The translations under genes and the position numbers were made by a program. Positions 22,845-43,458 of a DNA stretch of 64,000 nucleotides are shown here, piece after piece (within the stretch, counting starts at the first letter, position 1; each line of letters begins with the position of its first letter). The notes below the pieces were generated by a model. It ran no database searches. It was not told where the DNA came from and worked only from the letters and a program-made list of their open reading frames with translations. Origin of the DNA: an uncultured Pirellulales bacterium (GTDB lineage Bacteria > Planctomycetota > Phycisphaerae > Sedimentisphaerales > Anaerobacaceae); contig CAZDQP010000001.1 in NCBI GenBank assembly GCA_964507485.1, forward strand, positions 753 to 64,752, given 5' to 3'.

Positions 22845-22846
22845 TT

Positions 22847-26524: not shown

Positions 26525-27304
26525 ATGGCAAATTTAGCTATTGCAAAAATTATACTGGATGGACACAAATGGCCCGGCGCTGTGAACAGATGGAACTGGT
26601 ATCCTACAAAGACCGCCTTCTGCGGAACAACCGGTAAAGGCTGGGACAATACCGTGGATAACTTCAGTTCCGCCGACGAAACCCAACGAGCCCTGAATGC
26701 CGGACAGCCGACCAATGGTGGCACAAGAACGCCACTCGGGACTAAGATTTCATGCTACTACGATAGTACGGAGAATCCCGGTTACTACACTGTTCAATAT
26801 CTTGCCTTCCACTCGTTCGAGGACGGCATGGATATATCCAAAGATTTCAGTGACGGCAAATTCTGGTGTTCAGGTGCCGCTATCGGATGTATTTCATGCT
26901 CAGAATGGGCGGATACTTCCACGGGTCCTTGGTTCGTTGTGACAAGATGCTCTACCGGTGGAGACCAGACACAGGGTTCGCCTGTCTGTATCCCTTGCAG
27001 TACACATATTTATAGTGACGGTACTGGCGTCGCAACTAACGGATACGGTGACGGCTGCGGCTGGTTCCTGATTGATGGTGTTATGCCCTGCAAGGATATT
27101 ACCTTGCTTGACGATGAGACCGGTGCCGGCAAAGGCGTTGAGATAACCTGCCAGTGCGAACGCGGGGACATCATTATCGAAATCACCGGAGACCAACCGA
27201 TTCTCATGCCTGCTGATGTCTCTAACCTAACTGATGCTACCGGCCTTGTTGGTATAGCTGCCAGTGCGCTTACTATCGGTTGGGCATGTGCGAGTGCGGC
27301 GTAA
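26525..27304 (+). CDS. Cys-rich head-associated protein (decoration?)
   Basis: 259 aa with many Cys residues. AGGAGAAAA RBS. Confidence 0.45.
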   Translation: MANLAIAKIILDGHKWPGAVNRWNWYPTKTAFCGTTGKGWDNTVDNFSSADETQRALNAGQPTNGGTRTPLGTKISCYYDSTENPGYYTVQYLAFHSFEDGMDISKDFSDGKFWCSGAAIGCISCSEWADTSTGPWFVVTRCSTGGDQTQGSPVCIPCSTHIYSDGTGVATNGYGDGCGWFLIDGVMPCKDITLLDDETGAGKGVEITCQCERGDIIIEITGDQPILMPADVSNLTDATGLVGIAASALTIGWACASAA

Positions 27305-27748: not shown

Positions 27749-28480
27749 ATGGCTATGTCCTGTAGCGAGTTGATTGACGAAATACAGGCGCGATGCGGTC
27801 GGCCTGATACGACCGACCTTATCGATACTACCTGGCTTACCAGAAGAATCAATGAAGCCCAGAAGATTATTATCGAAGAAGTACCACTTATCCCTTCTGT
27901 TACTTTTCACAACAGAGACTCAATAGATACGACCGGAACAACCAAATATGCGATAAACGAAATATCCGTAGGCGACAGTACGACAGCCAATTTTCCATGC
28001 AATATAACCGATGTATGGTATCTCGACGGAAATGAGAGTAAGAAACTCGTATTTAAGCCTGTTGATGAATACGACAGACTGTATCCCGACCCTACTCATT
28101 CGGACGCTAATAGAGAAAAACCCGTTCACTGGACTTTGAGAGATAACGGATATATTGAAATTGCTCCTCTGTGCGCAAGCGGATACTGGGACAATGACCT
28201 TAAAATAACAGGTGATTTCTATGCGGCGGATTTCACTACGGACAGCACTTCCTTAAGCGATATAAGCCGTGCAGACGAGGGGCTTATCCTTTACGGTGTA
28301 TGGAAATCGTGGCAGGCCATAGGCTCCGCCAATCCCTCAGTAGTTTCAGAGATAAGAAACGCAAAAAAAATGTGGTCAAACCCATATCCGGCCACTGGCG
28401 AAACTCTCGGATGGCTCGAGAGTTTCGGCGATAAAATAAATAGTATGGTTCAGTGGAACGATAATTTTTATGAGGATTAA
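27749..28480 (+). CDS. hypothetical structural-module protein
   Basis: 243-aa ORF with a GGAGAAAG RBS. Confidence 0.5.
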   Translation: MAMSCSELIDEIQARCGRPDTTDLIDTTWLTRRINEAQKIIIEEVPLIPSVTFHNRDSIDTTGTTKYAINEISVGDSTTANFPCNITDVWYLDGNESKKLVFKPVDEYDRLYPDPTHSDANREKPVHWTLRDNGYIEIAPLCASGYWDNDLKITGDFYAADFTTDSTSLSDISRADEGLILYGVWKSWQAIGSANPSVVSEIRNAKKMWSNPYPATGETLGWLESFGDKINSMVQWNDNFYED

Positions 28481-29309
28481 AATAATCGCAGAAACGGGGG
28501 CTGCGCACAGGAAAAGCTATTCGAGATGCCTTGCTATGATAGATGCCGCAAGACAATGCGGCGCCGATGCTATAAAATTCTCGGCCTATAAAGCCGACGA
28601 AATGACTATTGACAGTAATAAAGAGCCTTTCGTTATCAAATCCGAGCCATGGAAAGGAATGAGCCTTTATTCGATTTATGACAGTATTGCCATTCCATAT
28701 CACTGGCTGAATGACCTTAAAAGAGCAACGATGGCCGCCGGGATGGAATTTATTTTAAGCGTCTATCATCCTAATACCGTCGAAATTCTGGGGCAGTTGG
28801 GAGTAAAAACCGTCAAAATAGCCTCTTTTGAGTTAAACTATACCGAATTATTGAAAAGTTTAGCTAACGACCCGAAAGTTTATAATATTCTTCTCAGTAC
28901 CGGGGGGGCTACTGAGAAAGAGATAGATAAAGCCTCTGATATACTCAAATATAAAGACCTTACTTTGCTTCATTGTATCTCCAAATATCCTGCAAAACCG
29001 GAAGAAATGAATCTTGTAATGCTGGATAATATGAAGAAGTTCGGCTTCAAGGTCGGTCTTTCCAATCATTCAAGAATTCTAACTGTTCCGGTCATGGCCG
29101 TTACTATGGGTGCTACTGTCCTGGAACAACACTTAAAGCTGGATGATGATAATCTGGACGCTTCTTTTGCGCTGTTTCCAGACGCTTTTAAGGCCGTTGT
29201 CGATGTTTGCAGAAAAACAGAAGCCATATTGGGGACGGTCGATTATAGCCAGCCAAAAACTTTCCACAGAAAAGAAATTAACGGTAAATGGGTTCGAGCG
29301 GTATGGTAG
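28470..29309 (+). CDS. NeuB/PseI/LegI-type nonulosonic acid synthase (no SAF domain)
   Basis: IIAETGAAH...GADAIKFSAYKAD...VKIASFEL...ILLSTGGAT..EI...LLHCISKYPA...GLSNHS...GATVLEQH is colinear with the NeuB TIM barrel. Confidence 0.75.
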   Translation: MRIKIIAETGAAHRKSYSRCLAMIDAARQCGADAIKFSAYKADEMTIDSNKEPFVIKSEPWKGMSLYSIYDSIAIPYHWLNDLKRATMAAGMEFILSVYHPNTVEILGQLGVKTVKIASFELNYTELLKSLANDPKVYNILLSTGGATEKEIDKASDILKYKDLTLLHCISKYPAKPEEMNLVMLDNMKKFGFKVGLSNHSRILTVPVMAVTMGATVLEQHLKLDDDNLDASFALFPDAFKAVVDVCRKTEAILGTVDYSQPKTFHRKEINGKWVRAVW

Positions 29310-29614
29310 ATTTTAAATGTAATCTTAACTGTCCTCAGAAAACACAGCCACCGCCTTGCTGTCGATTATGTTCCAAGGCAAGAAAAGATTTCATTGATGA
29401 ATCCAATAAGAAATTCTGGACGGATAGTCGTGGTTTCTGGTCTGAAAATGGCTGCAAGCTGGAAAGAGATAAAATGCCTGAAGAATGTAAGTCTTATGAC
29501 TGCCGGATGTATCAGTTTGTAACGATAAGCGTTTGGAGTGGTCAAGGCTGGCTGCAAAACGTAAAAGCCGTACCGCAAGGCAAAAGGGTCGAATATAAAA
29601 TGGCTGACGTATGA
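29303..29614 (+). CDS. Cys-rich protein, paralog 1
   Basis: CNLNCP...CCRLCSKARKDFIDESNKKFW...GCKLERDKMPEECKSYDC. Paralog of the next ORF. Confidence 0.5.
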   Translation: MVDFKCNLNCPQKTQPPPCCRLCSKARKDFIDESNKKFWTDSRGFWSENGCKLERDKMPEECKSYDCRMYQFVTISVWSGQGWLQNVKAVPQGKRVEYKMADV

Positions 29615-29991
29615 AATGTGATTTAAATTGTCCGGCAACGGGGTCAATATTTCTTGGCAGGTTCTGTTGTCATAATTGCTCTGCCGCAAGAAAATATTAT
29701 GTCAAAGAATCGAATAAACATTTGTGGAACGAAGAAAAAGGATTTTTCGAAGAAGGTAAAGGTTGCAGACTGTCAAGAGCAGAAATGCCGCAGGAGTGCA
29801 AGGAATACGATTGCCATAAGAAATCATTTTATATTTGTGAATTAAAATACTCCCAGCTTGTATGGAATGAAAAATGGGTTAAGAAAAAACCTGTTACTTT
29901 ATTTGTAAGAGGTGAAGTAAACGAAGGTCATTTTGATAATTTGTTTGAACAGATGAAAAAAGATATTGCAAGGTTTAGTAAAAATGAATGA
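29611..29991 (+). CDS. Cys-rich protein, paralog 2
   Basis: CDLNCP...CCHNCSAARKYYVKESNKHLW...GCRLSRAEMPQECKEYDC. Confidence 0.5.
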   Translation: MKCDLNCPATGSIFLGRFCCHNCSAARKYYVKESNKHLWNEEKGFFEEGKGCRLSRAEMPQECKEYDCHKKSFYICELKYSQLVWNEKWVKKKPVTLFVRGEVNEGHFDNLFEQMKKDIARFSKNE

Positions 29992-30835
29992 TAAGACAAT
30001 CCTGATAACCGGCGGGACTGGAAGTTTAGGGCAGGCGATAATTGAGAAAATCAGTCGGAACTACAACCCCAAAAAGGTTATTATTTATAGTAGAAATGAG
30101 TATAATCAGCACTTAATATCTAAAAAATACTCCCATATACCTTGGCTTAGATTCCGTATCGGCGACGTTAGAGACAAAGAAAGACTTGCTTGGTGCTGTG
30201 ATAAAGTTGACTATCTGATACACGCCGCCGCATTAAAGCATATCCGAATATGTGAAGAAAATCCTTTAGAGGCTATACAGACCAATATAATCGGCAGCTC
30301 TAATGTAATAGACGCCTGTGTAAAAAACAGGGTACAAAAAGCAGTTCTTGTAAGTACGGACAAAAGCCCAAAGGCCGAGAATCTTTACGGTGCGACAAAA
30401 TTCACAGCCGAAAAACTGTTTGAATCTGCGAATATCTACGGAAGAACAATCTTCAGAATAATCCGATATGGCAATGTAATCGGCTCCCATGGCTCAGTTA
30501 TCGAATATTTCCTCAAACTAAAAAAAGAGGGAATACATAAATTTCCTATTACAGATCCGCAATGTACCCGGTTCTGGATAACACTGAATCAGGCCGCAAA
30601 AGCAGTTATAGAACATTTGTTAAAAGAGAATACCGAAACTTTGTTCATTCCAAAATTACCGTCAATGAAGATAACCGATATGGCAAGGGCAATAGACCCC
30701 GACTGCACTTTCGAATTTATCGGTATTAAAAAAGGCGAGCGTCTGCATGAGGAATTGGCTGAAGGATACACTTCAGACACGAATGACTGGTGGCTTAAAA
30801 AAGAAGAATTTAGAGAATTATTAAAAATATCTTAA
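29984..30835 (+). CDS. UDP-sugar 4,6-dehydratase (PseB/CapD-type SDR)
   Basis: KTILITGGTGSLG, IGDVRD, YLIHAAALKHIRICEENPLEAIQTNIIG, LVSTDKSP...NLYGATK. Confidence 0.8.
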   Translation: MNDKTILITGGTGSLGQAIIEKISRNYNPKKVIIYSRNEYNQHLISKKYSHIPWLRFRIGDVRDKERLAWCCDKVDYLIHAAALKHIRICEENPLEAIQTNIIGSSNVIDACVKNRVQKAVLVSTDKSPKAENLYGATKFTAEKLFESANIYGRTIFRIIRYGNVIGSHGSVIEYFLKLKKEGIHKFPITDPQCTRFWITLNQAAKAVIEHLLKENTETLFIPKLPSMKITDMARAIDPDCTFEFIGIKKGERLHEELAEGYTSDTNDWWLKKEEFRELLKIS

Positions 30836-30843
30836 AATTTCAC

Positions 30844-30872
30844 TTGACAGAAAAAGAAAGATAAAGTAATAC
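30844..30872 (+). promoter_or_regulatory. possible internal promoter
   Basis: TTGACA, 17-nt spacer, TAATAC. The -10 is weak. Confidence 0.3.
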
Positions 30873-30909
30873 TATGCTATGAACGTAGATTTGATAATGA
30901 TAAATAAAA

Positions 30910-30960
30910 GCCCCGACGAGTGCATTTCTGTTATCAGGTCTGCGTTCAGCTTGTCGGGGC
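30910..30960 (+). promoter_or_regulatory. GC-stem hairpin in the leader of 30983-31918 (or a terminator of the upstream genes)
   Basis: GCCCCGAC / GTCGGGGC 8-bp stem, 35-nt loop, followed by ATTTT. Confidence 0.4.
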
Positions 30961-30982
30961 ATTTTAACTAAGGAGTAGTAAA

Positions 30983-31918
30983 ATGATTTCTCAATTTATG
31001 AAAGATGTTCGAGAGGAAAAAAACGGGTTCAGTTTCGGCAAAGTGTTTCGATTTGATGAAGAAAGTGTTGTCGCTATATTACCAATTATCAGAGAAAGCC
31101 AAGTCGAACGAGATTATATTGTTTTGCCAGAAGCTAAAGACGTAAAAATTGAAGATACTGGTGATATTGATAAAGCAAAAATTACTAATAATGGTGATAA
31201 ACCCGTTTATATTAGAAGCGGAACTGTTTTAAAAGGCTCTACTCAGGAAAGAGCTTCTGTTATCAGCAGAATTATCTTCCCGAACCAAACGAAACAAATC
31301 AAAGTCGTTTGCGTTCATCAAACCAAAGGCATATCAATAGGCGCAAAAATGGATTATTCCGGTCTAACGCCTTCTTCAATAAGCCTTGGTTCTCAACAGG
31401 CTACTTGGAATAGCGTTAATAAATATACCTGTTGTGCCCGTAACTCTTTTTCGTCTTCGGCTCCGGATTTATCTTCAAATATTGGAGGAACTTTTTTTGT
31501 AAGTCCCACTGATGATTTGCACTCCTATATGAAAGATTATTCCAAAAAAATTGAAAAAATTTTATCGAAGATAGAATACAAAAAGAATCAAACCGGAATG
31601 GCTTTGTTCGATGTGGAAGGTGTTTTTTTGATAGAGATATTTGATTTAACCGGTTCTTGGAAAGCTATACGTGATGATGTTATTTCAAGAGAGGGGGAAA
31701 ATATCATAAAGAAGGATTTGCAGGGTATTTTTCAGTTGAAACCTGAAAGGGCGAATGAATTGGTAATTAATATTCTCAATGAAAATTATAAAGAAAAAGA
31801 ATTACATAAAAATCAGAGTTCAACTTATGCTTTGGAAGGTGACAAATATATCGGCGAGACAACGATTTTGAATCAAAAAGTTATTCACTTTAGTTTAATG
31901 AGAAAAAGTAAGAATTAA
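30983..31918 (+). CDS. ARPP-1/DUF6569-like protein (tentative)
   Basis: The motif order VAILPI...YIVLPEA...VKIEDTG...ITNNGDKPVYIRSGTVLKGSTQER...IKVVCVHQTKGI...KVIHFSL matches my memory of that family. AAGGAG RBS. Confidence 0.4.
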   Translation: MISQFMKDVREEKNGFSFGKVFRFDEESVVAILPIIRESQVERDYIVLPEAKDVKIEDTGDIDKAKITNNGDKPVYIRSGTVLKGSTQERASVISRIIFPNQTKQIKVVCVHQTKGISIGAKMDYSGLTPSSISLGSQQATWNSVNKYTCCARNSFSSSAPDLSSNIGGTFFVSPTDDLHSYMKDYSKKIEKILSKIEYKKNQTGMALFDVEGVFLIEIFDLTGSWKAIRDDVISREGENIIKKDLQGIFQLKPERANELVINILNENYKEKELHKNQSSTYALEGDKYIGETTILNQKVIHFSLMRKSKN

Positions 31919-31920
31919 TT

Positions 31921-32652
31921 ATGTCTGATTTGTTTTCTCGAATAGCTATAGGCTGTGCAGGATGGAACCAGCCTTACAACGGAGTCCAAGTTCCTGATAA
32001 GGACATAGATAAGATACTTGGCTATTGCCAGTCTTCAGGCATTGATACTCTCGATATGGCAACTGCTTACGGGAATGATTTCAACCGACCGAATTCTTAC
32101 TTCAATAAGATAATCAAAATCCGCAAGGGCGATGATATTGAAAAGATTCTTGAATCGCAACCATACTGCATAATGGCACATGGCTTAGAGAATAATAGTT
32201 GTTTATATCCAGAACCAAAAATAGATAAATGGACAGGGCTCATAAATAGAGGTATTTCACTTTATTCTCCCAATGAAATGGGAGCAGTTAGATGGGAACA
32301 GAAAATAGGTCCACCTATACATGTTATGTTTGGTAATACAAGATTTTCACCTATAGAAATTCTTCAAGTACCTTACAGTCTTTATGACAGAAGATGGGAG
32401 ATACATTTTCCAGAAGTTCACAAACATTATAAAATTCATGTCCGCTCAATCTTCCTGCGTGGCAGGATAATCGAGGATGGAATTCCGGCAGAAGAATGTA
32501 TCAAATTCTGCCTGTGCAATCCTTATATTGATAAAGTAATTATCGGCGCCGATTCTTTTGACCAGTTAAGAAGGAATCTGGATTTCTTATTCAAATGGAA
32601 GAACCTTGAAAAACATGATGAAAAACTTTTGGACACAAGAAAATGGGATTGA
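31921..32652 (+). CDS. aldo/keto-reductase-like protein (short)
   Basis: IGCAGW...GIDTLDMATAYGN resembles an AKR N-terminus. Only 243 aa. Confidence 0.35.
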   Translation: MSDLFSRIAIGCAGWNQPYNGVQVPDKDIDKILGYCQSSGIDTLDMATAYGNDFNRPNSYFNKIIKIRKGDDIEKILESQPYCIMAHGLENNSCLYPEPKIDKWTGLINRGISLYSPNEMGAVRWEQKIGPPIHVMFGNTRFSPIEILQVPYSLYDRRWEIHFPEVHKHYKIHVRSIFLRGRIIEDGIPAEECIKFCLCNPYIDKVIIGADSFDQLRRNLDFLFKWKNLEKHDEKLLDTRKWD

Positions 32653-32810
32653 AACGTACTCTTATAAGTTGCAAAAAATGTAATTATAAATGTCAAATGC
32701 CATATCAGGGAAAAGTACATATAAAATGTCCTAAATGTGGCGGCGAAACAAGACAAAGAGTAGCAGATAATGTTGAAAAAGGTTGGGATGTAAAAACGGA
32801 ATATGAATAA
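32643..32810 (+). CDS. zinc-ribbon mini-protein (55 aa)
   Basis: CKKCNYKC...CPKCGG. Overlaps the upstream stop. Below the track cutoff. Confidence 0.35.
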   Translation: MGLKRTLISCKKCNYKCQMPYQGKVHIKCPKCGGETRQRVADNVEKGWDVKTEYE

Positions 32811-32922
32811 TATGATTAATAAAATCCTGTTTTTAGGAAGTATATTTTTTGTCGCTTTGTCATTCTTGGCTTTTATTTATTACGTGCTGAATATATCAAT
32901 ACTTTAAGATAAAGGAGAAATA

Positions 32923-34314
32923 ATGAATTTTCGACACACAAAAACCTTGATACCTGATGGAGTCCAAACTCTTAGCAAACGTCCCTGCTGTTATGTCGAG
33001 GACGTATATCCTGATTACCTTGTACGGGGAAATGGTTCCTATGTATGGGACTTAAAGGACAAAAGATATATAGATTATCATTCAGCTTTAGGCGCGATAA
33101 TTCTCGGCATAAACAACCAGAAGGTATCCGATGCCGTATGTAACCAGATGAGAGAGGGGAATCTGTTTTCGTTATCTCACCCGAAAGAAACGGAACTCGC
33201 TGAACTGATGAGAGAGACATTTCCTTCCATGCAGGTTATGAGATTCGTCAAGACCGGGTCAGAGGCATGTTCCGCCGCCATTAAAGTTGCAAGGGCATAT
33301 ACTGAGAGGGAAGCAGTGATAACCTGCGGATATCACGGCTGGCATGAATGGTATAACTGCACTACACCCAAAAATGCAGGTTCTTATCCACAACCTGTTT
33401 ATCCGGTCGAATGGGGCAATTTGGAAAAGCTGAAAGAATTGTTAGAAACTAAAAAACCGGCGGCCTTTATTACTGAGCCATATATATACGCAGATGAAAA
33501 AGAGGTTGAAAAGTGGCTGAAAGAGTCCCGCAAGCTGTGTGTTCAGAACAAAGCACTTTTCATATTGGATGAAAATGTAACCGGATTCAGAACTACTAAG
33601 TTGGGCGCCCAAAATCACTGGAAAGTCAAGCCTGACCTTTCCGTGTTCGGCAAATCTATGGGTAACGGAGTGCCCATTGCCTGTTTTGGTGGCCTGGATG
33701 ATATCATGGGCGTATTGAAGAAGGATTGTTTTGTCTCAAGTACCTTCGGGGGAGATTTACTTGGTATAGTTGCAGCCATTGAGACAATAAAACTCCTGAA
33801 ATCTAAGCCTATAATCCATCATATATGGACTATGGGTTCCAAGCTTAAAACAGGTTTTAATCAAAGCGCAGAAGCAGCTATGAAAGAGAGCATAAGATGT
33901 GTCGGGCTTCCGCCGAGAACGCATTTCCTGTTCCCGAGCGCAGAACATAAAAGCCTTTTCTGGCAGGAATGTCTCGACCAGGGAATATTCTTCGGACACA
34001 ATAACTTCGTAACTGCCGAACATTCGATAATAGATATCGATACTACACTCTCCGTGATAAGACATGCCATGAAAATACTTCTGAAGAACTGGGACGCACC
34101 CATGAAGGCTTTGAGAGGGAAAGTCGCCATTGAAACGCTGCGAATGGTCACTGTGCCTGCGCCGAATAAGAAAAAAGAAACGGCCAAGGATATAATTGAA
34201 AAGGCTGACCAGCAGGCGGAAGAAATAAAAACCGATAAACAAAAAAGAACGTCACCACCTCTCTGTAAAAAATGCGGTAATAAACACTGGCCAATGCACA
34301 AATGTAAAGTGTAA
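32923..34314 (+). CDS. class-III (GSA-like) PLP aminotransferase with Lys-rich zinc-knuckle tail
   Basis: YHGWHEW, ILDENVTGFR, FGKSMGNG (PLP Lys) and SSTFGGD motifs. The C-terminal roughly 60 aa are basic and end in CKKCGNKHWPMHKC. Confidence 0.75.
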   Translation: MNFRHTKTLIPDGVQTLSKRPCCYVEDVYPDYLVRGNGSYVWDLKDKRYIDYHSALGAIILGINNQKVSDAVCNQMREGNLFSLSHPKETELAELMRETFPSMQVMRFVKTGSEACSAAIKVARAYTEREAVITCGYHGWHEWYNCTTPKNAGSYPQPVYPVEWGNLEKLKELLETKKPAAFITEPYIYADEKEVEKWLKESRKLCVQNKALFILDENVTGFRTTKLGAQNHWKVKPDLSVFGKSMGNGVPIACFGGLDDIMGVLKKDCFVSSTFGGDLLGIVAAIETIKLLKSKPIIHHIWTMGSKLKTGFNQSAEAAMKESIRCVGLPPRTHFLFPSAEHKSLFWQECLDQGIFFGHNNFVTAEHSIIDIDTTLSVIRHAMKILLKNWDAPMKALRGKVAIETLRMVTVPAPNKKKETAKDIIEKADQQAEEIKTDKQKRTSPPLCKKCGNKHWPMHKCKV

Positions 34315-34320
34315 ATAATT

Positions 34321-34926
34321 ATGAAGTTAGAAATCTTGACTTTAGAGCAATGCGAGGAAGTGAGGAAGTGGCGCAATCAATGCCTCGAAACTCTCCGGAC
34401 ACCATATCCACTTACAAAGGAAATGCAGGAAAGTTTCTATCAGAACGTAGTGTGTAATCGCAACAGTCCACATAGATATTGGGCGATATGGGGCGAAAAA
34501 GAAGACTATCCAGCAGGTTCAGCGATAAAAGTAAAAAAAGGTGAATTGATAGTTCCAAAAATACCTGAATTCTTTCTCGGTATGGGTGGCTTGACTGGCA
34601 TATCGCTTGAAAATCGAAATGCCGAAATCTCACTTATAATAAATCCTGAGTATCGCAATAAAGGAATTGGCAAACAGGCAGTTACATTATTACTCGACCA
34701 AGGATTTAATTATCTCAATCTGCAAACAATATACGGAGAAGTATATGGATGCAATCATTTTGAGATAGTTGAATTTTGGAAAAAGATTACGGAAGAATAT
34801 ACGAAAACTAACTTCGTAAATTGGATAGTTATGAGAAACCGTAAATTCTGGAAAGGCAAATATTATCAGGGTTATTATTTCACTATAGACAGGGACGATT
34901 TTAATTCGGTTGAAAATGAAGATTGA
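34321..34926 (+). CDS. GNAT N-acetyltransferase (PseH-like)
   Basis: LTLEQCEEVRKWRNQCLETLR...TKEMQESFY and the acetyl-CoA motif NKGIGKQAV. Confidence 0.65.
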   Translation: MKLEILTLEQCEEVRKWRNQCLETLRTPYPLTKEMQESFYQNVVCNRNSPHRYWAIWGEKEDYPAGSAIKVKKGELIVPKIPEFFLGMGGLTGISLENRNAEISLIINPEYRNKGIGKQAVTLLLDQGFNYLNLQTIYGEVYGCNHFEIVEFWKKITEEYTKTNFVNWIVMRNRKFWKGKYYQGYYFTIDRDDFNSVENED

Positions 34927-35749
34927 AAAATTTACAGCCTTATATTCACCACTTGACATTGAGATATCGCAGGAAATATCCGGACAATATGAAGACCTGT
35001 CTTATCGTGATGAAGATTGCCATGTAATTGCTGGATTAAAAGATAATCGCATATCCGGTTTTTGGCGTCCCATGATAGCAGTTGGCGATAATAAATCTCT
35101 GAAGATGCACATAGAGAGACTTTATGATATTTGCCAGGACATATTCTATATGGACTTCCTGATTGATGGAAAGCTTTCTGTTATCAGCCAGTTTCTTTTA
35201 CGACATGGCTACAAGGCAAGACCGTATTATACACAGGTGATTGATTTAACCAAACCATGTTCTGAATTACACTCTGACCTGAGAAAAAGTTATAAATCCC
35301 TTGTTAATAAAAGAGAAAATCTTTTAAGAGGCTCTGTTTCAGATTTCAGAATATTGCACGAAAAAGACAGAGGCATAAAGCGGTCTGATAAGGCTTGGGA
35401 TATTCAAGAGAAGATGAAAGAAAATGGGCGGGCGTTTTGTATTCTTGATGACTGGTCGGATACTCAGGCAGAAATTATGATTTATTATAATGATATCTGG
35501 GCTTATTATGCTTCAGCAGCCTCTAAATCGGGGGCTAATAGCCATGCCTGTCTATGGGAAGGGATAAAAACCTGTATGGCAATGGGTTGTAAATACTTTG
35601 AAATGGGCGAACAGGTATTTTCGGTTGGCGCTAAAATGCTTGGTGGTGCCGATAAGCCGAAATTCGCCAACAAGAAAGATGTTGATATAAGTCTTTTTAA
35701 GAGAGGATTCGGGGGTGAATCGAAAGTTAGATTGATATTGGAGAAATAA
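34916..35749 (+). CDS. FemAB-like / GNAT-fold acyl(aminoacyl)transferase (tentative)
   Basis: About 278 aa. The C-terminal IYYNDIWAYYASAAS...ANSHACLWEGIKTCMAMGCKYFEMGE resembles the FemAB/Acetyltransf_6 pattern. Confidence 0.4.
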   Translation: MKIEKFTALYSPLDIEISQEISGQYEDLSYRDEDCHVIAGLKDNRISGFWRPMIAVGDNKSLKMHIERLYDICQDIFYMDFLIDGKLSVISQFLLRHGYKARPYYTQVIDLTKPCSELHSDLRKSYKSLVNKRENLLRGSVSDFRILHEKDRGIKRSDKAWDIQEKMKENGRAFCILDDWSDTQAEIMIYYNDIWAYYASAASKSGANSHACLWEGIKTCMAMGCKYFEMGEQVFSVGAKMLGGADKPKFANKKDVDISLFKRGFGGESKVRLILEK

Positions 35750-35771
35750 TTATAAATGGAGAGATTTCAGG

Positions 35772-35996
35772 ATGAAGTTCTTGAGCAATATAATGAATTT
35801 TATGCAGAAAATGGCTATACTCTCAAAGAAAAGGCAAAGTTGTGCGCATTGCAGTTATAGATACGCTGTTTATCGTGCTTCAGGGAATATATATGAATGG
35901 CATTGTGGCTGCAAAGACTGTGAATATTATCGTCAATATATAGGCGAGTTTGGCGGAAGAGTTTTATTTTCTTTTTGCCCGCATTTCAAAAAATGA
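35772..35996 (+). CDS. small Cys-rich ORF
   Basis: 74-aa ORF with a GGAGAG RBS. A competing 34-aa ORF starts at 35756. Confidence 0.3.
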   Translation: MKFLSNIMNFMQKMAILSKKRQSCAHCSYRYAVYRASGNIYEWHCGCKDCEYYRQYIGEFGGRVLFSFCPHFKK

Positions 35997-36000
35997 AACT

Positions 36001-36180
36001 ATGAATCTTATCGATGTTACAGAAATAACAGAAAGACAAAAAATGGCTATTTGGCTTATGATACAAATAGACCTTGGCAATTTTACCAAAGAACAAGCAT
36101 TAGATATCGGTCGTGATTTCAATGAATATTTGAACGATACTCCAGATTCAACAATGAAAGAATATTTAGATGCACGATAA
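36001..36180 (+). CDS. hypothetical small acidic protein
   Basis: ATG at 36001 within the track ORF 35950-36180. Confidence 0.35.
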   Translation: MNLIDVTEITERQKMAIWLMIQIDLGNFTKEQALDIGRDFNEYLNDTPDSTMKEYLDAR

Positions 36181-36895
36181 AAAGAAGCTTTGTATTATCG
36201 GTTGCGGATTGAGCCACAAGAAGGCGCCCTATGGTGATGATTCTTATGAGATATGGAGTCTCAATGAGTTTGAGCCACCAAGATACGATATAATGTTCGA
36301 GCTTCATCCGATGGAAGTGCAAAATGAAAGAGAACTCGAATTTCTTATGAACTGCGAAAAGCCAGTTTATGTCCTTAGCGAAACGCCGCTTGTCCCGAAT
36401 GGTATTGAATTTCCTCTGGACGAAATATTAAAACAGTCTTGGGCAATAGAATACTTCACATGCACTATGGCTTATCAGATAGCTTATGCGATTCATCTTG
36501 GTTTCGAAGAAATACAACTCTGGGGACTCAATATGGATTATGGTTCACCAAGAGAAAAAACGGTTGAATCTGCATGTATTCAATATTGGGTTGGTATAGC
36601 CAAAGGCAAAGGAATAAAGGTAAAATGGGACGAAAATCCTGCTAACTGGCGATGGAAATATGGCTATGAATATTTCCAAGAAAAAAGCAATATAGAAAAC
36701 TGGATATGTCGCCTTGCAGTTAGTTCTATTTACCGCCTTGGTCCAACGGCTTCTATGGGTGGTGACGGACTTCCTATAAGGAAGGAACATAATGCGAGAA
36801 AATTACTCGATTATGCTGGCCACAAAAAAGATTGCAAGATGGATGATTTTCACGAATGTACCTGTGGACTGGATGATATTCTAAGGAGTTTGTAA
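36170..36895 (+). CDS. possible nonulosonic-acid transferase (DUF115/GT42-like Rossmann pattern)
   Basis: KKLCIIGCGLS near the N-terminus and FTCTMAYQIAYAIHLGFEEIQLWGLNMD resemble sialyl/pseudaminyl-transferase-like families. Weak. Confidence 0.3.
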   Translation: MHDKKKLCIIGCGLSHKKAPYGDDSYEIWSLNEFEPPRYDIMFELHPMEVQNERELEFLMNCEKPVYVLSETPLVPNGIEFPLDEILKQSWAIEYFTCTMAYQIAYAIHLGFEEIQLWGLNMDYGSPREKTVESACIQYWVGIAKGKGIKVKWDENPANWRWKYGYEYFQEKSNIENWICRLAVSSIYRLGPTASMGGDGLPIRKEHNARKLLDYAGHKKDCKMDDFHECTCGLDDILRSL

Positions 36896-36898
36896 AGA

Positions 36899-37366
36899 AT
36901 GACTAAATCAGTCTATATGACTATAGGTTTCACTGGTTCTGGAAAAAGTTTTTGGGCGCGTACGTTCGCAAAAACTCATCCTCGAACAAAGATAGTATCT
37001 CCTGATACTTTTAGAACAATGTTAAACGGCACTTATAAATATCTTGAGGAACTTGACGACGTGATTACTGAAAGCTGTTTCGATACGGCTGAAAATTTAT
37101 TAAATGCGGGATATGACGTAATAATAGACTGTGGAAACCTGACGAAATCCGATGACCGCAGGGGCAAATGGAAAAAGTTGCCTGCCGATAAGTTCGTTGC
37201 TGTATTAATGCCGGTTCATCAGACTGTTGATTGGTATGTTAAACGCAGAAAACAAAATCCACATTGGAATACAATGGATATAGAAAAAATTGTTATTGCC
37301 GAAATGAAGGCATTTGAACCGCCGACAGAAGATGAATTCGATGAAATAATAAAGATTAAGGAGTAA
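36899..37366 (+). CDS. P-loop kinase (AAA_33/Pnk-like)
   Basis: Walker A IGFTGSGKS, 155 aa. Confidence 0.55.
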   Translation: MTKSVYMTIGFTGSGKSFWARTFAKTHPRTKIVSPDTFRTMLNGTYKYLEELDDVITESCFDTAENLLNAGYDVIIDCGNLTKSDDRRGKWKKLPADKFVAVLMPVHQTVDWYVKRRKQNPHWNTMDIEKIVIAEMKAFEPPTEDEFDEIIKIKE

Positions 37367-37369
37367 TTA

Positions 37370-38788
37370 ATGGCTAAGTTTTTGATATTAACCGCCTCAC
37401 CAACGAGGGATGAGATAGTGGATATTCTCATTAAAGAGGAATTAGAAAAATTCGGTCACCAAGTATCTGTCCGGCCATGCCTTAGAGAGGGTAGGTCTGC
37501 GATAGTAGATGAATTGAATAAGCTGATTCTGGGTGAGGAAAATCCTTTTATTCCCGACACTGTTGTTGTCCCACCGATAAGAAATCCGTACAGCCGTGAC
37601 CTTGTAGCTGTTCTAAAAAATTGGGGCTTAGGGGTTGTAAGCAGACACACGGAACCTTCCTGTGATATGAAAGACTTCGAGAAGATAGTTGGACAGGACA
37701 AAAAAGACAAAACGTCAAGGGCTATGGAAATACTCGGTCGGTATAAATATGAGGTTGACTGTGAATTGGTTTGGTCTAAAGACGAGGCTGAAATATTAAA
37801 TACCAAGCGCAAATACGATTTCAAAACTCATTCTGTTGGCGCCTTAACGGTAGATGCCTATATGCGACAGGACAAAATCGATAAATATAAAAATATCGAA
37901 GAGTTCAGAAAGAAATTTAATTTCGACGAAAAGCCTGTCCTTTTGGTTTGTTCCGCCTGGGGCTTTGTCGATACGGCGCCAGACCTTCATATCGATGAAG
38001 TCAATGAAGCCAAGAAGGATATCGAGGGTATGAACAGGCACTTGGAAATGATAAAAAAACTTGATGTTCTGAGAAAAGACTGGAACATTCTCGTAACCAC
38101 ACATCCCGGCGTAATTCAGGAACCATATCAGGATGTTTGCAAAAAAATGAGTATTCCCTTGGATACTGAATCGACGAGTTTTTATCTTAAGGTTCATGTT
38201 GACGCCTTTATTCATGCCGGTTCGACTATGGCCATCGGCGCCCATTTTCTGAATAAACCGGCTTATCAGTTCGGCGATATAAATACCAAAAACGCTAATA
38301 ACTGGTGGGCTGATCCGGAATCCGCTATTTCCAGAATATCACCATATTTTAAGACTCCGGAAGAACTGATAGAAGCTATAAATTCATATAAGCCTGAAAC
38401 TAATGCGAATTCGGAATCTCTCAAAGAATTGGAAGAAGGGCGTTTCGGTCTGATGGACGGCCAGGCTACTGTTCGCGCCGCTGCGATAATCGATAAAGTC
38501 AGAGGTCAATTTAAATTCTGCTGGCCTAAGAGTTCGATGGATTATTCTCAGTTAACTTTGATGAAAGAGGAAAGAAGATTATTTACGCCTATTACCTGTG
38601 GTATTTGCGGCGAAGAAATGGCGATAGTAAACGAATCTTGGACAACGCAGGCGACACAGAACTTCTTTACGCACCTTAAAGATTACCTCAAAGGCCCGAT
38701 ACCTCCTGATGTCATACAGAAGATATGGGCGCCGCCGCATGGGGATGCATGTCCCCACTGCGGGGCCAGATTCTTCAGGCAAGATTAA
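37370..38788 (+). CDS. hypothetical, possibly GT-B-fold transferase or hydrolase, with C-terminal zinc ribbon
   Basis: 472 aa. LLVCSAWGF...THPG...FIHAGSTMAIGAHFLNKPAYQFGD, with a tail CGICGEE...CPHCG. Confidence 0.3.
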   Translation: MAKFLILTASPTRDEIVDILIKEELEKFGHQVSVRPCLREGRSAIVDELNKLILGEENPFIPDTVVVPPIRNPYSRDLVAVLKNWGLGVVSRHTEPSCDMKDFEKIVGQDKKDKTSRAMEILGRYKYEVDCELVWSKDEAEILNTKRKYDFKTHSVGALTVDAYMRQDKIDKYKNIEEFRKKFNFDEKPVLLVCSAWGFVDTAPDLHIDEVNEAKKDIEGMNRHLEMIKKLDVLRKDWNILVTTHPGVIQEPYQDVCKKMSIPLDTESTSFYLKVHVDAFIHAGSTMAIGAHFLNKPAYQFGDINTKNANNWWADPESAISRISPYFKTPEELIEAINSYKPETNANSESLKELEEGRFGLMDGQATVRAAAIIDKVRGQFKFCWPKSSMDYSQLTLMKEERRLFTPITCGICGEEMAIVNESWTTQATQNFFTHLKDYLKGPIPPDVIQKIWAPPHGDACPHCGARFFRQD

Positions 38789-38790
38789 TA

Positions 38791-39423
38791 GTGATATTAG
38801 CAATTCTACAATGCAGACTCGGTAGTAAGCGTCTTCCGAACAAGGCATTATTACAAATGCCGCCGGGAAGTGGTATCTGTATGTTGGAAATGTGTATAAG
38901 AAAAGCACTTCTGGCTATCTTGATTGATGATGTTGTTGTAGTAACCCCGGATAAGAAAATAGAAAGCCTGTGCAGAAAATGGAATATTAGATGTTTTCTT
39001 AAAAAGTTTGAAGGCAGGGACGTTCTTCGGGAATATTATGAGGCGGCCAGAAAGATGAAGGCCGATACTATAGTTAGATTGACGGCGGACTGCCCCATGA
39101 TTCGACCGGATATTATTGATGAATGTATTCAGGCGTACCTTGATAATGATTGTTATATAGCTTATAATACTGATGAAAGCACAGGGCAGTTAGCTGGCGA
39201 GGGTTCGGACGTTGAGGTTTTCTGTTATGATGTATTAAGGGAAGCATATTTTGGCGCCGATGACTCTTATGACAGGGAACATGTAACAAGTTGGATTCGA
39301 AAATATGCAGACAGCTATATGATTCCGACACGACAATTGGGAATTCGAAGCGTGAATACTTGGGAAGATTATGCTTGGGTATGTCAAAATTATTTAGATA
39401 TGCCAAATCCAGTAGAACCGTAA
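38791..39423 (+). CDS. cytidylyltransferase (CMP-nonulosonate synthetase/SpsF-like)
   Basis: The GTG start gives ILAILQCRLGSKRLPNKAL. LTADCPMIRPDIID also fits. Confidence 0.65.
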   Translation: MILAILQCRLGSKRLPNKALLQMPPGSGICMLEMCIRKALLAILIDDVVVVTPDKKIESLCRKWNIRCFLKKFEGRDVLREYYEAARKMKADTIVRLTADCPMIRPDIIDECIQAYLDNDCYIAYNTDESTGQLAGEGSDVEVFCYDVLREAYFGADDSYDREHVTSWIRKYADSYMIPTRQLGIRSVNTWEDYAWVCQNYLDMPNPVEP

Positions 39424-39718: not shown

Positions 39719-39966
39719 AACGTCGTAATTTTCTAAAACTTGCTGGCATTGCAGTATTTGCGCCAACGAAATTGATAAATACATCCTCTATTTGTGGATG
39801 GAACTCCTATATAGTTAAGCATCTTACGCTTAATGAAGTGCAAAAAGAAATACTTAAGAAATCACACTCCAAAGTTGATAATTGGTTTTTATTTGAAGGT
39901 CGAAAAATATTTTATGCGTTAAATCACTTGACGCACCAAAGGAAGAAAAATGAAGAAGAAATGTAA
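39715..39966 (+). CDS. hypothetical protein with Tat/signal-like N-terminus
   Basis: MKRRNFLKLAGIAVFAP. Confidence 0.4.
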   Translation: MKRRNFLKLAGIAVFAPTKLINTSSICGWNSYIVKHLTLNEVQKEILKKSHSKVDNWFLFEGRKIFYALNHLTHQRKKNEEEM

Positions 39967-40465: not shown

Positions 40466-41392
40466 ATGCTAAATCCTATAGCTCGGACTTATCACGGAAT
40501 TCATTTCCAGATACCTGTTTCTAATTTCAGCCGATTTAGATTTACTGTTCATCCGGACGGCAGTGGCACTTCATGGGATGAAGACAGCCCTGACGTTGGA
40601 CAACCTCACGGCTTGGACTACCGGTCATTACAGGATCTTCGCAAAGGTATTCGCAAACGTTTAGAACATGAACACGCAGATTTAGGAGATAATACGGTCG
40701 GCGGTATTCATAATCCAGGCGGATGTGCAGTTCTTGGTATTGAGGATGGAACCGCCACAATAGTAGCCGATGGAACTCTTCACGGCCACGGTATCGTCTG
40801 GGACAATACTGCCCGTTTATGGTGCTCAACCGCTGCTGCGGGCGCTTCTACGACCGGTGATTTTACATTAGTTCAAATACATCCTGATAAGCAATGGGGG
40901 GGGCAGGATATCACGTGGACGGGGGGACATGAATTCGATGCCTCTATTGACATTACGGGGAATGTGGCGCTTGACGGCGATTTTTCTGTTGATGGTATGG
41001 TATATTGTAATGCTGGTCTTGTCGCTGACGGTACAGTTCAATTTACAGGTCAAATAAATATATTTGGCACAGATAACACAGAGGATAGCGATAATGCTTC
41101 TCTTGCTAACGATGTTACTTACCAAGTATCGTCAGATGGGTTTCTTGTAGTTGATGTTTCCCATGCGGGTAATTCAGTGAATTACAGGGTCTTTGTAGAT
41201 ACAACCAAAGGAATGACCACAACGAGTTCTAAATATGAAGTTAACTTATCTCAGGCAGGCGTTCCAGTTATTGCCGGGCAAACTGTTATTTTGCCGAAAA
41301 ACAGTTATTGGTGTATATCAATTACGGCAGGTTCATTGTATCGATGTATATGGTATCCACTTGGGGATGGTTCTTGCGATAAGAATATATAA
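40466..41392 (+). CDS. tail fiber-like protein
   Basis: The C-terminal module IDITGNVALDGDFSVDG...INIFGT is shared with the product of 43458-44108. Confidence 0.55.
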   Translation: MLNPIARTYHGIHFQIPVSNFSRFRFTVHPDGSGTSWDEDSPDVGQPHGLDYRSLQDLRKGIRKRLEHEHADLGDNTVGGIHNPGGCAVLGIEDGTATIVADGTLHGHGIVWDNTARLWCSTAAAGASTTGDFTLVQIHPDKQWGGQDITWTGGHEFDASIDITGNVALDGDFSVDGMVYCNAGLVADGTVQFTGQINIFGTDNTEDSDNASLANDVTYQVSSDGFLVVDVSHAGNSVNYRVFVDTTKGMTTTSSKYEVNLSQAGVPVIAGQTVILPKNSYWCISITAGSLYRCIWYPLGDGSCDKNI

Positions 41393-41400
41393 GGTGAATT

Positions 41401-43458
41401 ATGCCGGATATACTAACGCGCACACCGACAAAAGGACTTTCGAGCCAGGCTCCTGAAACCGCTAAAGACTTATATACAGCGGCAAAAGGTTCGCAGAATG
41501 TTTTTTATGAATACGGACTTATCAGAACTCCCTATGGCTTTACCAAACTCGGTCTTACTACGACTGGTCTGAATTCCGGCGATATAGTTCTTTCAGTTTT
41601 CCAATGGCGTGAAATAGACAGGACTTCACATTTAACAGCAGTAACAACAGAAAAAATATATGATTATGATAATGTAAATGATGAATGGGACGATAAAACT
41701 CAAAGCGGTATTGCATACGATTCAAATATAGATAATCCGGTAAGTTATGTTGAATGCGGACATGATGATACTAATATATATATTGATGATAATGCCGCCA
41801 AAGCCAATGCCTATCACCATGTTATTGTATGTGATGGTGGATTAACGAATATTCAAAGATGGGCCGGAAGGTTCGAGCAGGACTTCGCCGACTTAACAGG
41901 TGGCGGAGATTACCATGACGGCACTACTCACAGGGCAAAGCAGATTAGTCTTTCAAGTAAGAACAGGCTATTACTGCTTTCCCCTCTTGAGTACAATTCA
42001 TCTTCTAAAACATGGGTGGAAAATAACCAGAGACTCAGGTGGCCAACGATAGGCAAGATACAGACTTGGACTGGTACGGGTTCTGGTAGTGTAGATTTAT
42101 ATGATACCGGCGGAGTTAATATCTGGGCGATACCACTGGGGATGGACCATATAATTTATCAAACGAAGGGCATATGGTCTATAAATTATGTCGGCAGTAC
42201 AACGGTATATGACCCGAGACCGATGATACCGGACTTGGGTTTACTGGCGCCACATGGTCTTGTCAGTTACAATAATGTCCATTATTTCATGGGCACGGAT
42301 TATAATGTTCACGCTTATTATGGTGGATATTCACAGGAAATTATAAGCGAGCCGGTCCATAAATTCTTATTTGACGACCTTTACGAACAATACGAATCAC
42401 GATGCTGGATGAGCATGTCGCCAAGGGGAAATTTTCTATGGGTTCTCATTGCCTCAAGTTCGGGGTATTTGGTTAAGGCATATATCCGAAACATGAAAAC
42501 AGGGGCTTGGACTATAAGAGATTTTTCTGCCGCATACGATAGTTCCGGCGGACTTACCTCTTTAACACTTGCCGGGTCTGCAAGCTATATTATCGGGGAT
42601 ACTTATAATGAGGAACTTAATTCAGTCTCTTTATATGATGATAGCGTAGGCGACGCCACGGAAAGGTATGGAGATAATCTTATGGACAGCAGCAGGACTC
42701 TGGCTGCTGATTATACGACTGGAACTTGGGGTGCCGGTGGCTTCAGCTATCAGGCGGTGGGCGAGAATTTTCAAAATGATTTTACTGTCAACGATATGAT
42801 GGTATCAATGGACCCGTCCGGCACTAATACGATGCCCGGATATCATTTCTTTACGGTCGAAAGTGTATGTGCCGACGGCTTTAAAATATATGGAACACAA
42901 CATACAGCCGCCGGAAATGAACATGGCATAGCAGATAATTCGACTAATGTGCCGACAGATTTATCGTTCGGCGCAAATGATACTCTTGGTTTTTATTCAC
43001 TGTGCGCAAATGATAGTCCGGGCGAAACTTATAATGAGGCGATTGAAACTATAAGAGTTTCTGAAAGATTAATAATAGCAGATAGCTCAGGTTTTATATA
43101 TCAAATAGACGAAACTTATACGGATGATGATGGTAATCTAATGGATTGCAGGCATTTGACACCTGTTATTGATGGCGGTTCACCTCACAGATTCAAAAGA
43201 TGGGGCAACTTTAATCTGTCTGTTGACGGTTCCGCTGACGGCGCTATGTTGTTTAGTTATAGAGTAGATTATTTCGAGACTTCTGACACTGGCTGGGTAG
43301 ACTATACTATTGATTTAACTACAGAGAATAAAACTTTCAACTTCTGGCCGAATGTATCTTCCAAAAGGATTCAATGCAAATTCAGTGATTTTTCCGGTAA
43401 GACTTTCTATGTTCGTAATTTTGTTATAGGTCCGCCGCAGTTTCAGGGAAATAGATAA
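41401..43458 (+). CDS. large tail/baseplate-type structural protein
   Basis: 685 aa, between the two fiber-like genes. Confidence 0.5.
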   Translation: MPDILTRTPTKGLSSQAPETAKDLYTAAKGSQNVFYEYGLIRTPYGFTKLGLTTTGLNSGDIVLSVFQWREIDRTSHLTAVTTEKIYDYDNVNDEWDDKTQSGIAYDSNIDNPVSYVECGHDDTNIYIDDNAAKANAYHHVIVCDGGLTNIQRWAGRFEQDFADLTGGGDYHDGTTHRAKQISLSSKNRLLLLSPLEYNSSSKTWVENNQRLRWPTIGKIQTWTGTGSGSVDLYDTGGVNIWAIPLGMDHIIYQTKGIWSINYVGSTTVYDPRPMIPDLGLLAPHGLVSYNNVHYFMGTDYNVHAYYGGYSQEIISEPVHKFLFDDLYEQYESRCWMSMSPRGNFLWVLIASSSGYLVKAYIRNMKTGAWTIRDFSAAYDSSGGLTSLTLAGSASYIIGDTYNEELNSVSLYDDSVGDATERYGDNLMDSSRTLAADYTTGTWGAGGFSYQAVGENFQNDFTVNDMMVSMDPSGTNTMPGYHFFTVESVCADGFKIYGTQHTAAGNEHGIADNSTNVPTDLSFGANDTLGFYSLCANDSPGETYNEAIETIRVSERLIIADSSGFIYQIDETYTDDDGNLMDCRHLTPVIDGGSPHRFKRWGNFNLSVDGSADGAMLFSYRVDYFETSDTGWVDYTIDLTTENKTFNFWPNVSSKRIQCKFSDFSGKTFYVRNFVIGPPQFQGNR

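Follow-up and report, generated by a model that had tools for sequence, protein, structure and literature searches.

A predicted pseudaminic-type sugar pathway embedded in the virion gene cluster of an uncultured phage lineage

Introduction

Nonulosonic acids, which include sialic, pseudaminic and legionaminic acids, are surface sugars of bacteria and animals that shape recognition, immunity and phage adsorption. Viruses can also glycosylate their own particles, as in the capsid or tail of mycobacteriophages and through the glycan machineries of chloroviruses and mimiviruses. In such systems the virus carries glycosyltransferase and sugar genes, sometimes located beside its structural genes, and uses them on its own particle; to our knowledge, the sugars involved are neutral or amino hexoses. 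Here we analyze a block of sugar genes (positions 28470-39423) in a 64,000-nucleotide stretch of contig CAZDQP010000001.1, hereafter the window, which very probably encodes a nonulosonic-acid pathway of the pseudaminic type and lies within the structural genes of a phage.

The closest described systems are mostly bacterial. In Campylobacter jejuni and Helicobacter pylori, pseudaminic acid (Pse) is made by PseB, PseC, PseH, PseG, PseI and PseF. Tannerella forsythia encodes soluble GT-B/TagB-like proteins of about 440-470 amino acids (aa), Tanf_01245 and TFUB4_00887 (BFO_1060 family), beside genes for nonulosonates activated with cytidine monophosphate (CMP). Genetic evidence implicates them in the transfer of derivatives of Pse or legionaminic acid (Leg): gene deletion removes the terminal nonulosonate from the O-glycan, and the proteins act on a sugar of that glycan (a ManNAcA residue), not on protein (PMC5420450). 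In flagellin O-glycosylation, a dedicated Pse or Leg pathway is combined with Maf (DUF115) proteins or with FlmG, a modular protein with a substrate-binding and a GT-B domain. The soluble FlmG and the Maf enzymes place Pse directly on self-assembling flagellin in the cytoplasm, before its export or assembly (PMC7591256).

A phage-borne example is the gene pair epaA/epaB of an Acinetobacter baumannii prophage. EpaA joins a CTP_transf_3 cytidylyltransferase to an aldo-keto-reductase (AKR) domain for the 8-epimerization of Pse (PMC12053666), and the block encodes proteins of both these types. Like the block described here, epaAB encodes phage-borne enzymes that work on pseudaminic acid, but they only epimerize Pse made by the host and change its capsule, whereas the block has a synthase, dehydratase, aminotransferase, activating enzyme and transferases within a virion module. 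The literature we searched on phages and Pse deals with this kind of tailoring and with Pse-binding or Pse-degrading phage proteins; it contained no phage-encoded module for both synthesis and transfer of a nonulosonic acid, none in the structural operon of a tailed phage, and no account of the phage lineage concerned.

Results

Layout of the sugar block

Every open reading frame (ORF) of the block is on the + strand. The genes are tightly packed, with inter-ORF gaps of -64 to +22 nt, the exceptions being 147 nt before the ORF at 30983 and 270 nt before that at 32923. Immediately upstream lies a gene for an SU10-adaptor-like head-to-tail adaptor (27749..28480, +; PF24175, 2e-6, 28.8 bits against a cutoff of 27) whose 3' end shares 11 nt with the start of the synthase gene. 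Downstream are the first further virion structural genes (40466..43458, +), which encode proteins of 308 aa and 685 aa; the latter (41401-43458) matches the virion structural protein family phrog_3287 at 4.5e-26. With the adaptor gene on one side and further virion genes on the other, the transferase and sugar genes are part of the structural module, a layout of the virion-glycosylation type. The initial annotation, which was made from the sequence alone, had proposed a co-oriented, tightly packed pseudaminic- or legionaminic-type pathway between head and tail genes. Profile, PDB and structure searches bear out this proposal and found the predicted enzyme families rather than unrelated ones. 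They add an AKR-like gene, an ARPP-1 gene and two Cys-rich paralogs.

Enzymes of the core pathway

The first gene of the block (28470..29309, +) encodes a NeuB-family TIM barrel of the PseI type (Pfam NeuB, 1e-58). Among the NCBIfam models, PseI scores best (TIGR03586, 232.6 bits, cutoff 340; NeuB, 173.2 bits). The best PDB match is the pseudaminic acid synthase 8h2c (2.7e-47), and the alignment stops at residue 275 of 349, before the SAF domain, which the phage enzyme lacks. The gene at 29984..30835 (+) encodes a PseB-type inverting 4,6-dehydratase of UDP-GlcNAc (Pfam Polysacc_synt_2, 1e-78) in a short form of 283 aa. PseB is likewise its best NCBIfam model (TIGR03589, 331 bits versus 174 for FnlA), with a score that its short C-terminus keeps below the equivalog cutoff (407.75). 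H. pylori FlaA1 is the best PDB match (2gn4, 1.3e-79), and the sTDK and YxxxK catalytic motifs are kept in the alignment.

The sole aminotransferase of the block (32923..34314, +) depends on pyridoxal phosphate and belongs to class III, resembling glutamate-1-semialdehyde aminomutase (GSAM; Pfam Aminotran_3, 1.5e-44; NF004856, 256 bits). PDB matches include GSAMs (~1e-36) and aminoglycoside C-6' aminotransferases (7lld, 4e-35), and the lysine aligned with the conserved FGK motif of GSAM is retained. A tblastn search with a DegT protein found no DegT/PseC-type aminotransferase in the window or in seven related loci. Directly 3' of the aminotransferase gene is that of a GNAT N-acetyltransferase (34321..34926, +; Pfam Acetyltransf_3, 7e-10; Acetyltransf_1, 2e-8), a candidate for the PseH step whose match to the PseH model is weak (TIGR03585, 1.1e-5, 25.6 bits, cutoff 93.1). 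The block ends with a CMP-sugar cytidylyltransferase (38791..39423, +), which starts at GTG 38791 or ATG 38725. It passes the Pfam cutoff for CTP_transf_3 (3e-22) and matches the cytidylyltransferase 6oew in the PDB (7e-17); KdsB-like NCBIfam subfamilies (3e-17) outscore PseF (6e-5, 22.7 bits, cutoff 205.7).

These matches agree with the initial annotation in its NeuB/PseI-type synthase without a SAF domain, its PseB/CapD-type dehydratase, its class-III aminotransferase in place of a DegT/PseC enzyme and its cytidylyltransferase. For the proposed PseH-like protein, the GNAT family stands and the likeness to PseH is weak.

With the canonical Pse pathway the block shares the PseB type with its catalytic motifs, the PseI type, a GNAT and a CTP_transf_3 protein. 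It departs from that pathway in the class-III enzyme in place of PseC, the SAF-less PseI, a PseB about 40 residues shorter and a cytidylyltransferase nearer to KdsB-like models than to PseF, as well as in its extra AKR-like, FemAB-like, kinase and Cys-rich proteins and in its location in a phage structural operon. No homolog of the UDP-sugar hydrolase PseG was found at E<=0.01 among the block proteins scanned against NCBIfam. We conclude with high confidence that this is a nonulosonic-acid pathway of the pseudaminic type. A product of the pseudaminic type (L-glycero-L-manno) is indicated by the family assignments of the dehydratase and the synthase, although the route to it departs from the canonical one.

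Conservation across related phages

Relatives were gathered by IMG/VR scans, using the relatives' own peptides and alignments, and by look-ups of metagenomic contigs, which together yielded more than 15 independent contigs. In a capsid-based scan of IMG/VR, 14 relatives had contigs that continue beyond the adaptor gene, and all 14 have the block at the same site. PseI directly follows the adaptor in each of the 14, and the remaining genes follow as far as each contig or stored locus reaches. Four further metagenomic contigs (L010, L092, L093 and L094) have the same gene set with tail genes after it. Wherever a related locus includes the adaptor gene, it lies 5' of the block, and the genes for the 308-aa and 685-aa virion proteins are found 3' of it. 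The block is therefore flanked by structural genes on both sides and is not host DNA at the end of a prophage, the possibility under which the initial annotation would have failed.

Two proteins, the kinase and the Cst-II-fold protein, are accessory. The conserved genes encode PseI, PseB and the cytidylyltransferase, the class-III aminotransferase and the GNAT, the GT-B, FemAB-like and Cys-rich proteins and, in most relatives, the AKR-like protein. The order is shuffled in L092 (5604-18754), which has the same sugar gene set with two GT-B paralogs and three Cys-rich paralogs. A weak SAF domain is still present in its PseI, and the locus encodes a further protein of 315 aa with a faint Glyco_hydro_32N match.

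In one relative (L001), the capsid protein is 82% identical to that of the window and the block proteins are 53-74% identical; in other relatives, the values are 55-60% for the capsid protein and 30-56% for the block proteins. Since the block proteins diverge in step with the structural proteins, the block appears to have been co-inherited vertically with the virion module for a long time. The presence at the same site in 14 of 14 relatives, the genome-like GC content and the identities that track those of the structural genes rule out a recent moron or horizontally acquired cassette; only the ARPP-1 gene is moron-like. We conclude that the block is inherited vertically as a core module that defines this uncultured lineage of phages, whose adaptor is SU10-like.

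No close relative of the phage was found among 50,697 GenBank phage records, in which neither a megablast search with the block nor a tblastn search with the capsid protein gave a match. In tblastn searches of the same records, the GT-B protein had no match, PseI matched only three weak records, and matches to PseB were mostly generic epimerases or doubtful. A PHROGs search of the block recovered the aminotransferase only.

Bacterial relatives of the aminotransferase

When GTDB genomes were searched with the alignment of the aminotransferase, 80 bacterial loci were obtained, chiefly from Ignavibacteria and Bacteroidota, with 34-41% identity. Their neighbors within a few kb include a NeuB homolog (71/80), CTP_transf_3 (65-69/80), a short-chain dehydrogenase/reductase (SDR, 71/80) and a split transketolase (52-55/80). 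Because NeuB and CTP_transf_3 genes adjoin the aminotransferase gene in most of these loci, the subfamily is tied to ulosonic-acid clusters in bacteria, and this gene neighborhood supports a predicted sugar-pathway role for the phage enzyme. That it replaces PseC in the phage is, in our judgment, a reasonably probable as well as parsimonious interpretation, since there is one dehydratase, one aminotransferase and one adjacent GNAT, with no DegT in any relative.

The conserved bacterial cluster is made up of genes for the cytidylyltransferase, split transketolase, class-III aminotransferase, SDR, a SAF-less NeuB and a fatty-acid-hydroxylase-like protein. The form with the hydroxylase is found in Hymenobacter negativus (L022, 7074-14279) and in about 50-70 of the loci L012-L091, from Ignavibacteria, Bacteroidota and other phyla. 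From its gene content, the cluster looks like an uncharacterized ulosonic-acid pathway. The cellular proteins closest to the phage aminotransferase are encoded in this cluster, which, like the phage block, also has a SAF-less NeuB and a related cytidylyltransferase. Unlike the block, it has no homologs of PseB, the GNAT, the FemAB-like protein or the GT-B protein, carries the transketolase and SDR instead, and leads to an uncharacterized product.

Transferase candidates and associated proteins

A 472-aa GT-B protein of the BFO_1060 kind (37370..38788, +; NF046086, 6.5e-17; TIGR04396, 1.3e-10) ends in a CxxC...CxxC zinc ribbon. Its AlphaFold model has a GT-B fold (pLDDT 88.5) and is matched by Foldseek to UDP-GlcNAc 2-epimerases, TagF and a capsule polymerase at ~1e-9. 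In an alignment of 52 family members, H245-P246, D201 and D205 are invariant, as are H282-x-G-S and C410/C413/C461/C464, and a D-x-E-G motif is found upstream in the consensus. An HP motif is typical of CMP-sugar transferases (PMC5420450). Like the Tannerella transferases, the phage protein is a soluble GT-B protein of similar length whose gene lies beside those for a CMP-nonulosonate. It also resembles them in its full-length match to their profile (model positions 47-363 of 365) and in having the HP and acidic motifs in the same order, an equivalence judged by eye rather than by structural alignment. It differs from them in its low NF046086 score (61.7 bits in the window and 74.7 bits in the related protein P0097, both under the cutoff of 200), in the added zinc ribbon and in the fusions to kinase and Cys-rich domains seen in relatives. 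Profile, motifs and model together make it a candidate CMP-nonulosonate transferase. At least 146 full-length homologs belong to the phage family, and the contigs that carry them are mostly of phage size.

A second, accessory candidate is a 241-aa protein (36170..36895, +), found in roughly half of the relatives, with a probable Cst-II (GT42)/DUF115 fold. In Foldseek, its AlphaFold model (pLDDT 85.4) has Cst-II/Cst-I and Methanocaldococcus jannaschii MptE as its best 15 PDB matches, with E-values of 1.7e-4 to 9e-3, probability 1.0 and a template modeling (TM) score of only ~0.40, followed by a clear drop. Five members of the family gave no relevant Pfam match even at E<=10, and its 408 homologs are unannotated. 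PDB sequence searches with this protein and with the GT-B protein returned nothing useful.

Between these two genes lies that of an accessory P-loop kinase (36899..37366, +; Pfam AAA_33, 9.5e-15), with weak matches to PNKP and PSTK. It is 47% identical to the kinase domain of P0097 (L010, 10001-12340; 779 aa), in which a Cys-rich domain, an AAA_33 kinase and the GT-B protein form one chain; two further fused homologs, P0099 and P0107, were listed. This fusion suggests that the Cys-rich, kinase and GT-B proteins are functionally linked and may recognize a macromolecular substrate. In the window, the Cys-rich domain is present as two small proteins: paralog 1 (29288..29614, +), with seven invariant Cys in the alignment and homologs in the related blocks, and paralog 2 (29611..29991, +), with 40% identity to paralog 1. 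A search with the Cys-rich domain returned only members of its own family. The kinase and GT-B assignments of the initial annotation were confirmed by these searches, and its DUF115/GT42-like label for the 241-aa protein agrees, at a modest TM score, with the model's structural matches and finds no support among sequence families.

Other proteins of the block

A FemAB-like protein (34916..35749, +), kept in all full-length relatives, is a putative aminoacyl or acyl transferase. The FemAB assignment, made already in the initial annotation, is backed by a family match that is present but weak (TIGR04421, 6.1e-8, only 32 bits versus a cutoff of 250). Pfam gave no FemAB match, and the profile had only a weak hit in the PDB, to the aminoacyl-tRNA-dependent peptide synthase 9wqw (E 0.31). 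A short AKR-like protein of 243 aa (31921..32652, +) was recognized through its family profile, which matches Tas (1lqa, 2.2e-7) and other AKRs in the PDB; Aldo_ket_red is only faint on its homologs. Its invariant D45, Y50 and K66 are placed as three members of the AKR catalytic tetrad would be. EpaA may be regarded as a precedent for the involvement of an AKR in Pse tailoring.

The gene between PseB and the AKR-like gene (30983..31918, +) encodes an ARPP-1 domain protein (PF20208, 3.3e-25). It is very AT-rich (GC 0.338; GC at third codon positions, GC3, 0.28), and none of the related phage loci carries a homolog. The gene resembles a moron that was acquired recently in a variable slot outside the conserved module, and its product is perhaps conflict-related. 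Two small overlapping ORFs (35772-35996 and 35950-36180, together 35772..36180, +) have no family match and no homolog in the relatives.

Genome context and transcription

Other structural genes in the window encode the large terminase (13746-15527), portal (15867-18038) and major head protein (25440-26471). The phage also encodes an integrase, ERF and YqaJ recombination proteins and DNA methylases, while no DNA polymerase or nucleotide-metabolism gene was found among the larger window ORFs scanned. An identical copy of the 472-aa GT-B protein is encoded on a public contig of 66.8 kb, which indicates that nearly all of the phage genome lies within the window.

The block is indeed more AT-rich than the head genes, as the initial annotation had noted by eye (GC 0.390 versus 0.463). 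The whole window has a GC content of 0.408, and the block also matches the tail and early regions. Because the block is near the genome average, it is the head module that is the outlier, and AT-richness says nothing about a foreign origin of the sugar genes. The promoter annotated before the tail operon is only putative: sigma-70-like matches are at chance level (42 found versus 44 expected from shuffles), one 10/12 match being at 40398-40425.

A strong terminator-like hairpin with a 13-bp stem and a T-run lies at 24375-24405 (+), just upstream of the genes at 24544 and 25440, the latter that of the major head protein. After it, no comparable + strand terminator occurs before 42000; the only terminator-like matches are weak and all intragenic. 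This suggests that the head genes through the sugar block form one long late transcription unit. Scans of the window for tRNAs and Rfam families found nothing.

Several other regions deserve mention. A small protein encoded just after the block (39950-40360, +) resembles, in its C-terminal half, the C-terminal domain of the RNA polymerase alpha subunit (Pfam, 6e-12; rpoA models, 8e-11). The relatives lack a homolog of this protein, which could act as a decoy or modulator of host transcription. In the head module, 18730-22844 (+) is a variable stretch mostly without counterpart in relatives, where only the C-terminal end of the 19365 protein is matched, in L001. Besides the 19365 protein, which is Laminin_G_3/ConA-like, it encodes two proteins whose N-termini resemble signal peptides: a right-handed beta-helix protein of 589 aa (20342) and a protein of 243 aa (22113). 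The head-module paralogs at 22793-23353 and 23769-24275 both match a single L001 gene, and a 259-aa protein (26525-27304) occurs as two tandem copies in L001 and three in L092. The early region encodes two HNH-AP2 homing-endonuclease-like proteins (1657-2130 and 5342-5818, +) and two DNA methyltransferases, N6_N4_Mtase (4478-5338, +) and MT-A70 (10790-11329, +). A phage-encoded protein with TROVE (Ro60-like) and vWA domains is found at 54021-55328 (+); no Y-RNA or other Rfam family reached threshold anywhere in the window.

Discussion

The enzyme families of the block are each known; what is new is a re-wired pseudaminic-type pathway fixed in the virion module of a phage. We see roughly even chances that the product of the module is a tailored CMP-pseudaminic-type sugar and that, inside the infected cell, its enzymes attach this sugar to a macromolecule, with the virion as the most likely acceptor. 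In such a route, PseB would convert UDP-GlcNAc to a UDP-4-keto-6-deoxy sugar, which the class-III aminotransferase, instead of a DegT-type PseC, would aminate at C4. The GNAT would then acylate the C4 amine. Removal of the nucleotide is a gap in the route, and this step would fall to a host enzyme or to one without an assigned gene. The SAF-less PseI would condense the free sugar with phosphoenolpyruvate, and the cytidylyltransferase would produce the CMP-sugar. The AKR-like, FemAB-like and kinase proteins may tailor the sugar or the acceptor. Transfer would be performed by the conserved GT-B protein with the Cys-rich domain proteins and, in some phages, also by the Cst-II-fold protein. It would take place late in infection, given probable late co-transcription with the structural genes.

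That one or more of the phage's own virion proteins are the acceptor seems to us slightly less than an even bet. This acceptor is favored because of the position of the block in the structural cluster, its strict co-inheritance, the probable late co-transcription and the modular transferase. Flagellin O-glycosylation offers the nearest parallel, with soluble GT-B and Cst-II/DUF115-like fold classes, a dedicated Pse or Leg pathway and a self-assembling structural protein as target. The phage proteins differ from that system in having no TPR domain and no Maf sequence signature, in a DUF115 likeness that is structural only (TM ~0.4) and in a target that is presumed to be the virion.

Several findings weigh against a virion-directed Pse pathway. 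Every NCBIfam equivalog score of the block proteins is under the curated cutoff. With no PseG-type hydrolase found, the proposed route lacks a step. Just one bacterial cluster was found to combine PseB with an aminotransferase of this kind, in a member of the Brocadiaceae (L017); it also carries DegT/PseC, and its class-III enzyme is doing something other than the PseC step. The Tannerella homologs of the GT-B protein act on an O-glycan sugar, which fits a host glycan acceptor equally well, and UDP-GlcNAc 2-epimerases among its best Foldseek matches are compatible with a role in nucleotide-sugar processing.

A host acceptor would mean that the GT-B protein caps a lipid-linked or surface glycan of the host (O-antigen, S-layer or protein O-glycan, or capsule), thereby masking receptors, blocking superinfection or reducing the loss of progeny on cell debris. 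We regard this, the main rival to a virion acceptor, as unlikely, though it is the explanation to which the nearest named family, Tanf_01245/BFO_1060, with its addition of Pse or Leg to a glycan ManNAcA residue, lends itself directly. The TagF-like structural matches point to envelope-polymer chemistry, the integrase makes lysogeny possible, and prophage-borne Pse-modifying genes that alter the capsule are known in Acinetobacter (PMC12053666). Expression in a lysogen is improbable, however, for a block that is inside the structural cluster, overlaps the adaptor gene and has no evident promoter or terminator of its own. Conversion genes and host surface glycans usually differ from strain to strain, whereas the block is invariant in position and content across relatives with capsid proteins only 55-60% identical. 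The divergence of its proteins, moreover, parallels that of the structural proteins. The block might also only boost or alter the host's CMP-nonulosonate pool for use by host transferases, with the GT-B protein as the hydrolase of the PseG/NeuC step. The UDP-GlcNAc 2-epimerase fold family includes the hydrolyzing NeuC and LegG, enzymes of this fold are the top Foldseek matches of the GT-B model, the PseG-type step is otherwise missing, and the Cst-II-fold protein is absent from about half of the relatives. We nevertheless consider mere precursor supply improbable: the profiles link the GT-B protein to BFO_1060 and TIGR04396, whereas PseG and NeuC do not appear at E<=0.01, and the invariant HP motif is one typical of CMP-sugar transferases (PMC5420450). 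Nor would one readily expect a small-molecule hydrolase to carry a zinc ribbon and to occur fused to kinase and Cys-rich domains.

Phage DNA glucosyltransferases are GT-B enzymes too, and the fusion of Cys-rich domain, kinase with weak PNKP similarity, GT-B domain and zinc ribbon resembles the layouts of DNA-modifying enzymes. These proteins could in principle place the sugar on phage DNA (or RNA) as a defense against restriction. This is very improbable, as the genes are in the late structural region and not with DNA-metabolism genes, and we found no precedent. DNA hypermodification was rejected because the scan of the larger ORFs revealed neither a dUMP/dCMP hydroxymethylase-like gene nor one for a DNA polymerase or for nucleotide metabolism. 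An artefact, either host chromosomal DNA at a prophage end or an assembly chimera, has next to no probability. The lower GC of the block relative to the head genes is the sole point for it, and the block matches the rest of the phage in GC. Host DNA and a chimera were rejected on synteny, given phage structural genes on both sides here and on the more than 15 independent contigs, which come from different samples. The GTDB scan with the aminotransferase alignment, moreover, found no close copy, the best match having 41% identity.

Taken together with glycosylation of the virion, the non-canonical pathway leads to a broader and more tentative proposal, which we think has perhaps one chance in three of being right in all its parts: that a whole family of environmental tailed phages makes a tailored pseudaminic-type sugar by a re-wired pathway, with a class-III enzyme for PseC, a SAF-less synthase and no PseG, and coats its own particles with it through a GT-B protein that works with a zinc-binding, Cys-rich partner domain of a new kind. 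Such particles would be the first phage virions known to bear a sialic-acid-like sugar.

If true, virus-encoded glycosylation would extend to nonulosonic acids in tailed phages. The SAF-less PseI, the short PseB and possibly a class-III aminotransferase that works on a nucleotide sugar would be compact enzyme variants for glyco-engineering, and the block would provide a handle on the uncharacterized bacterial aminotransferase/NeuB cluster. It would also raise the testable question of whether coats of acidic sugar affect the stability, adsorption and recognition of phages in groundwater and sediment communities.

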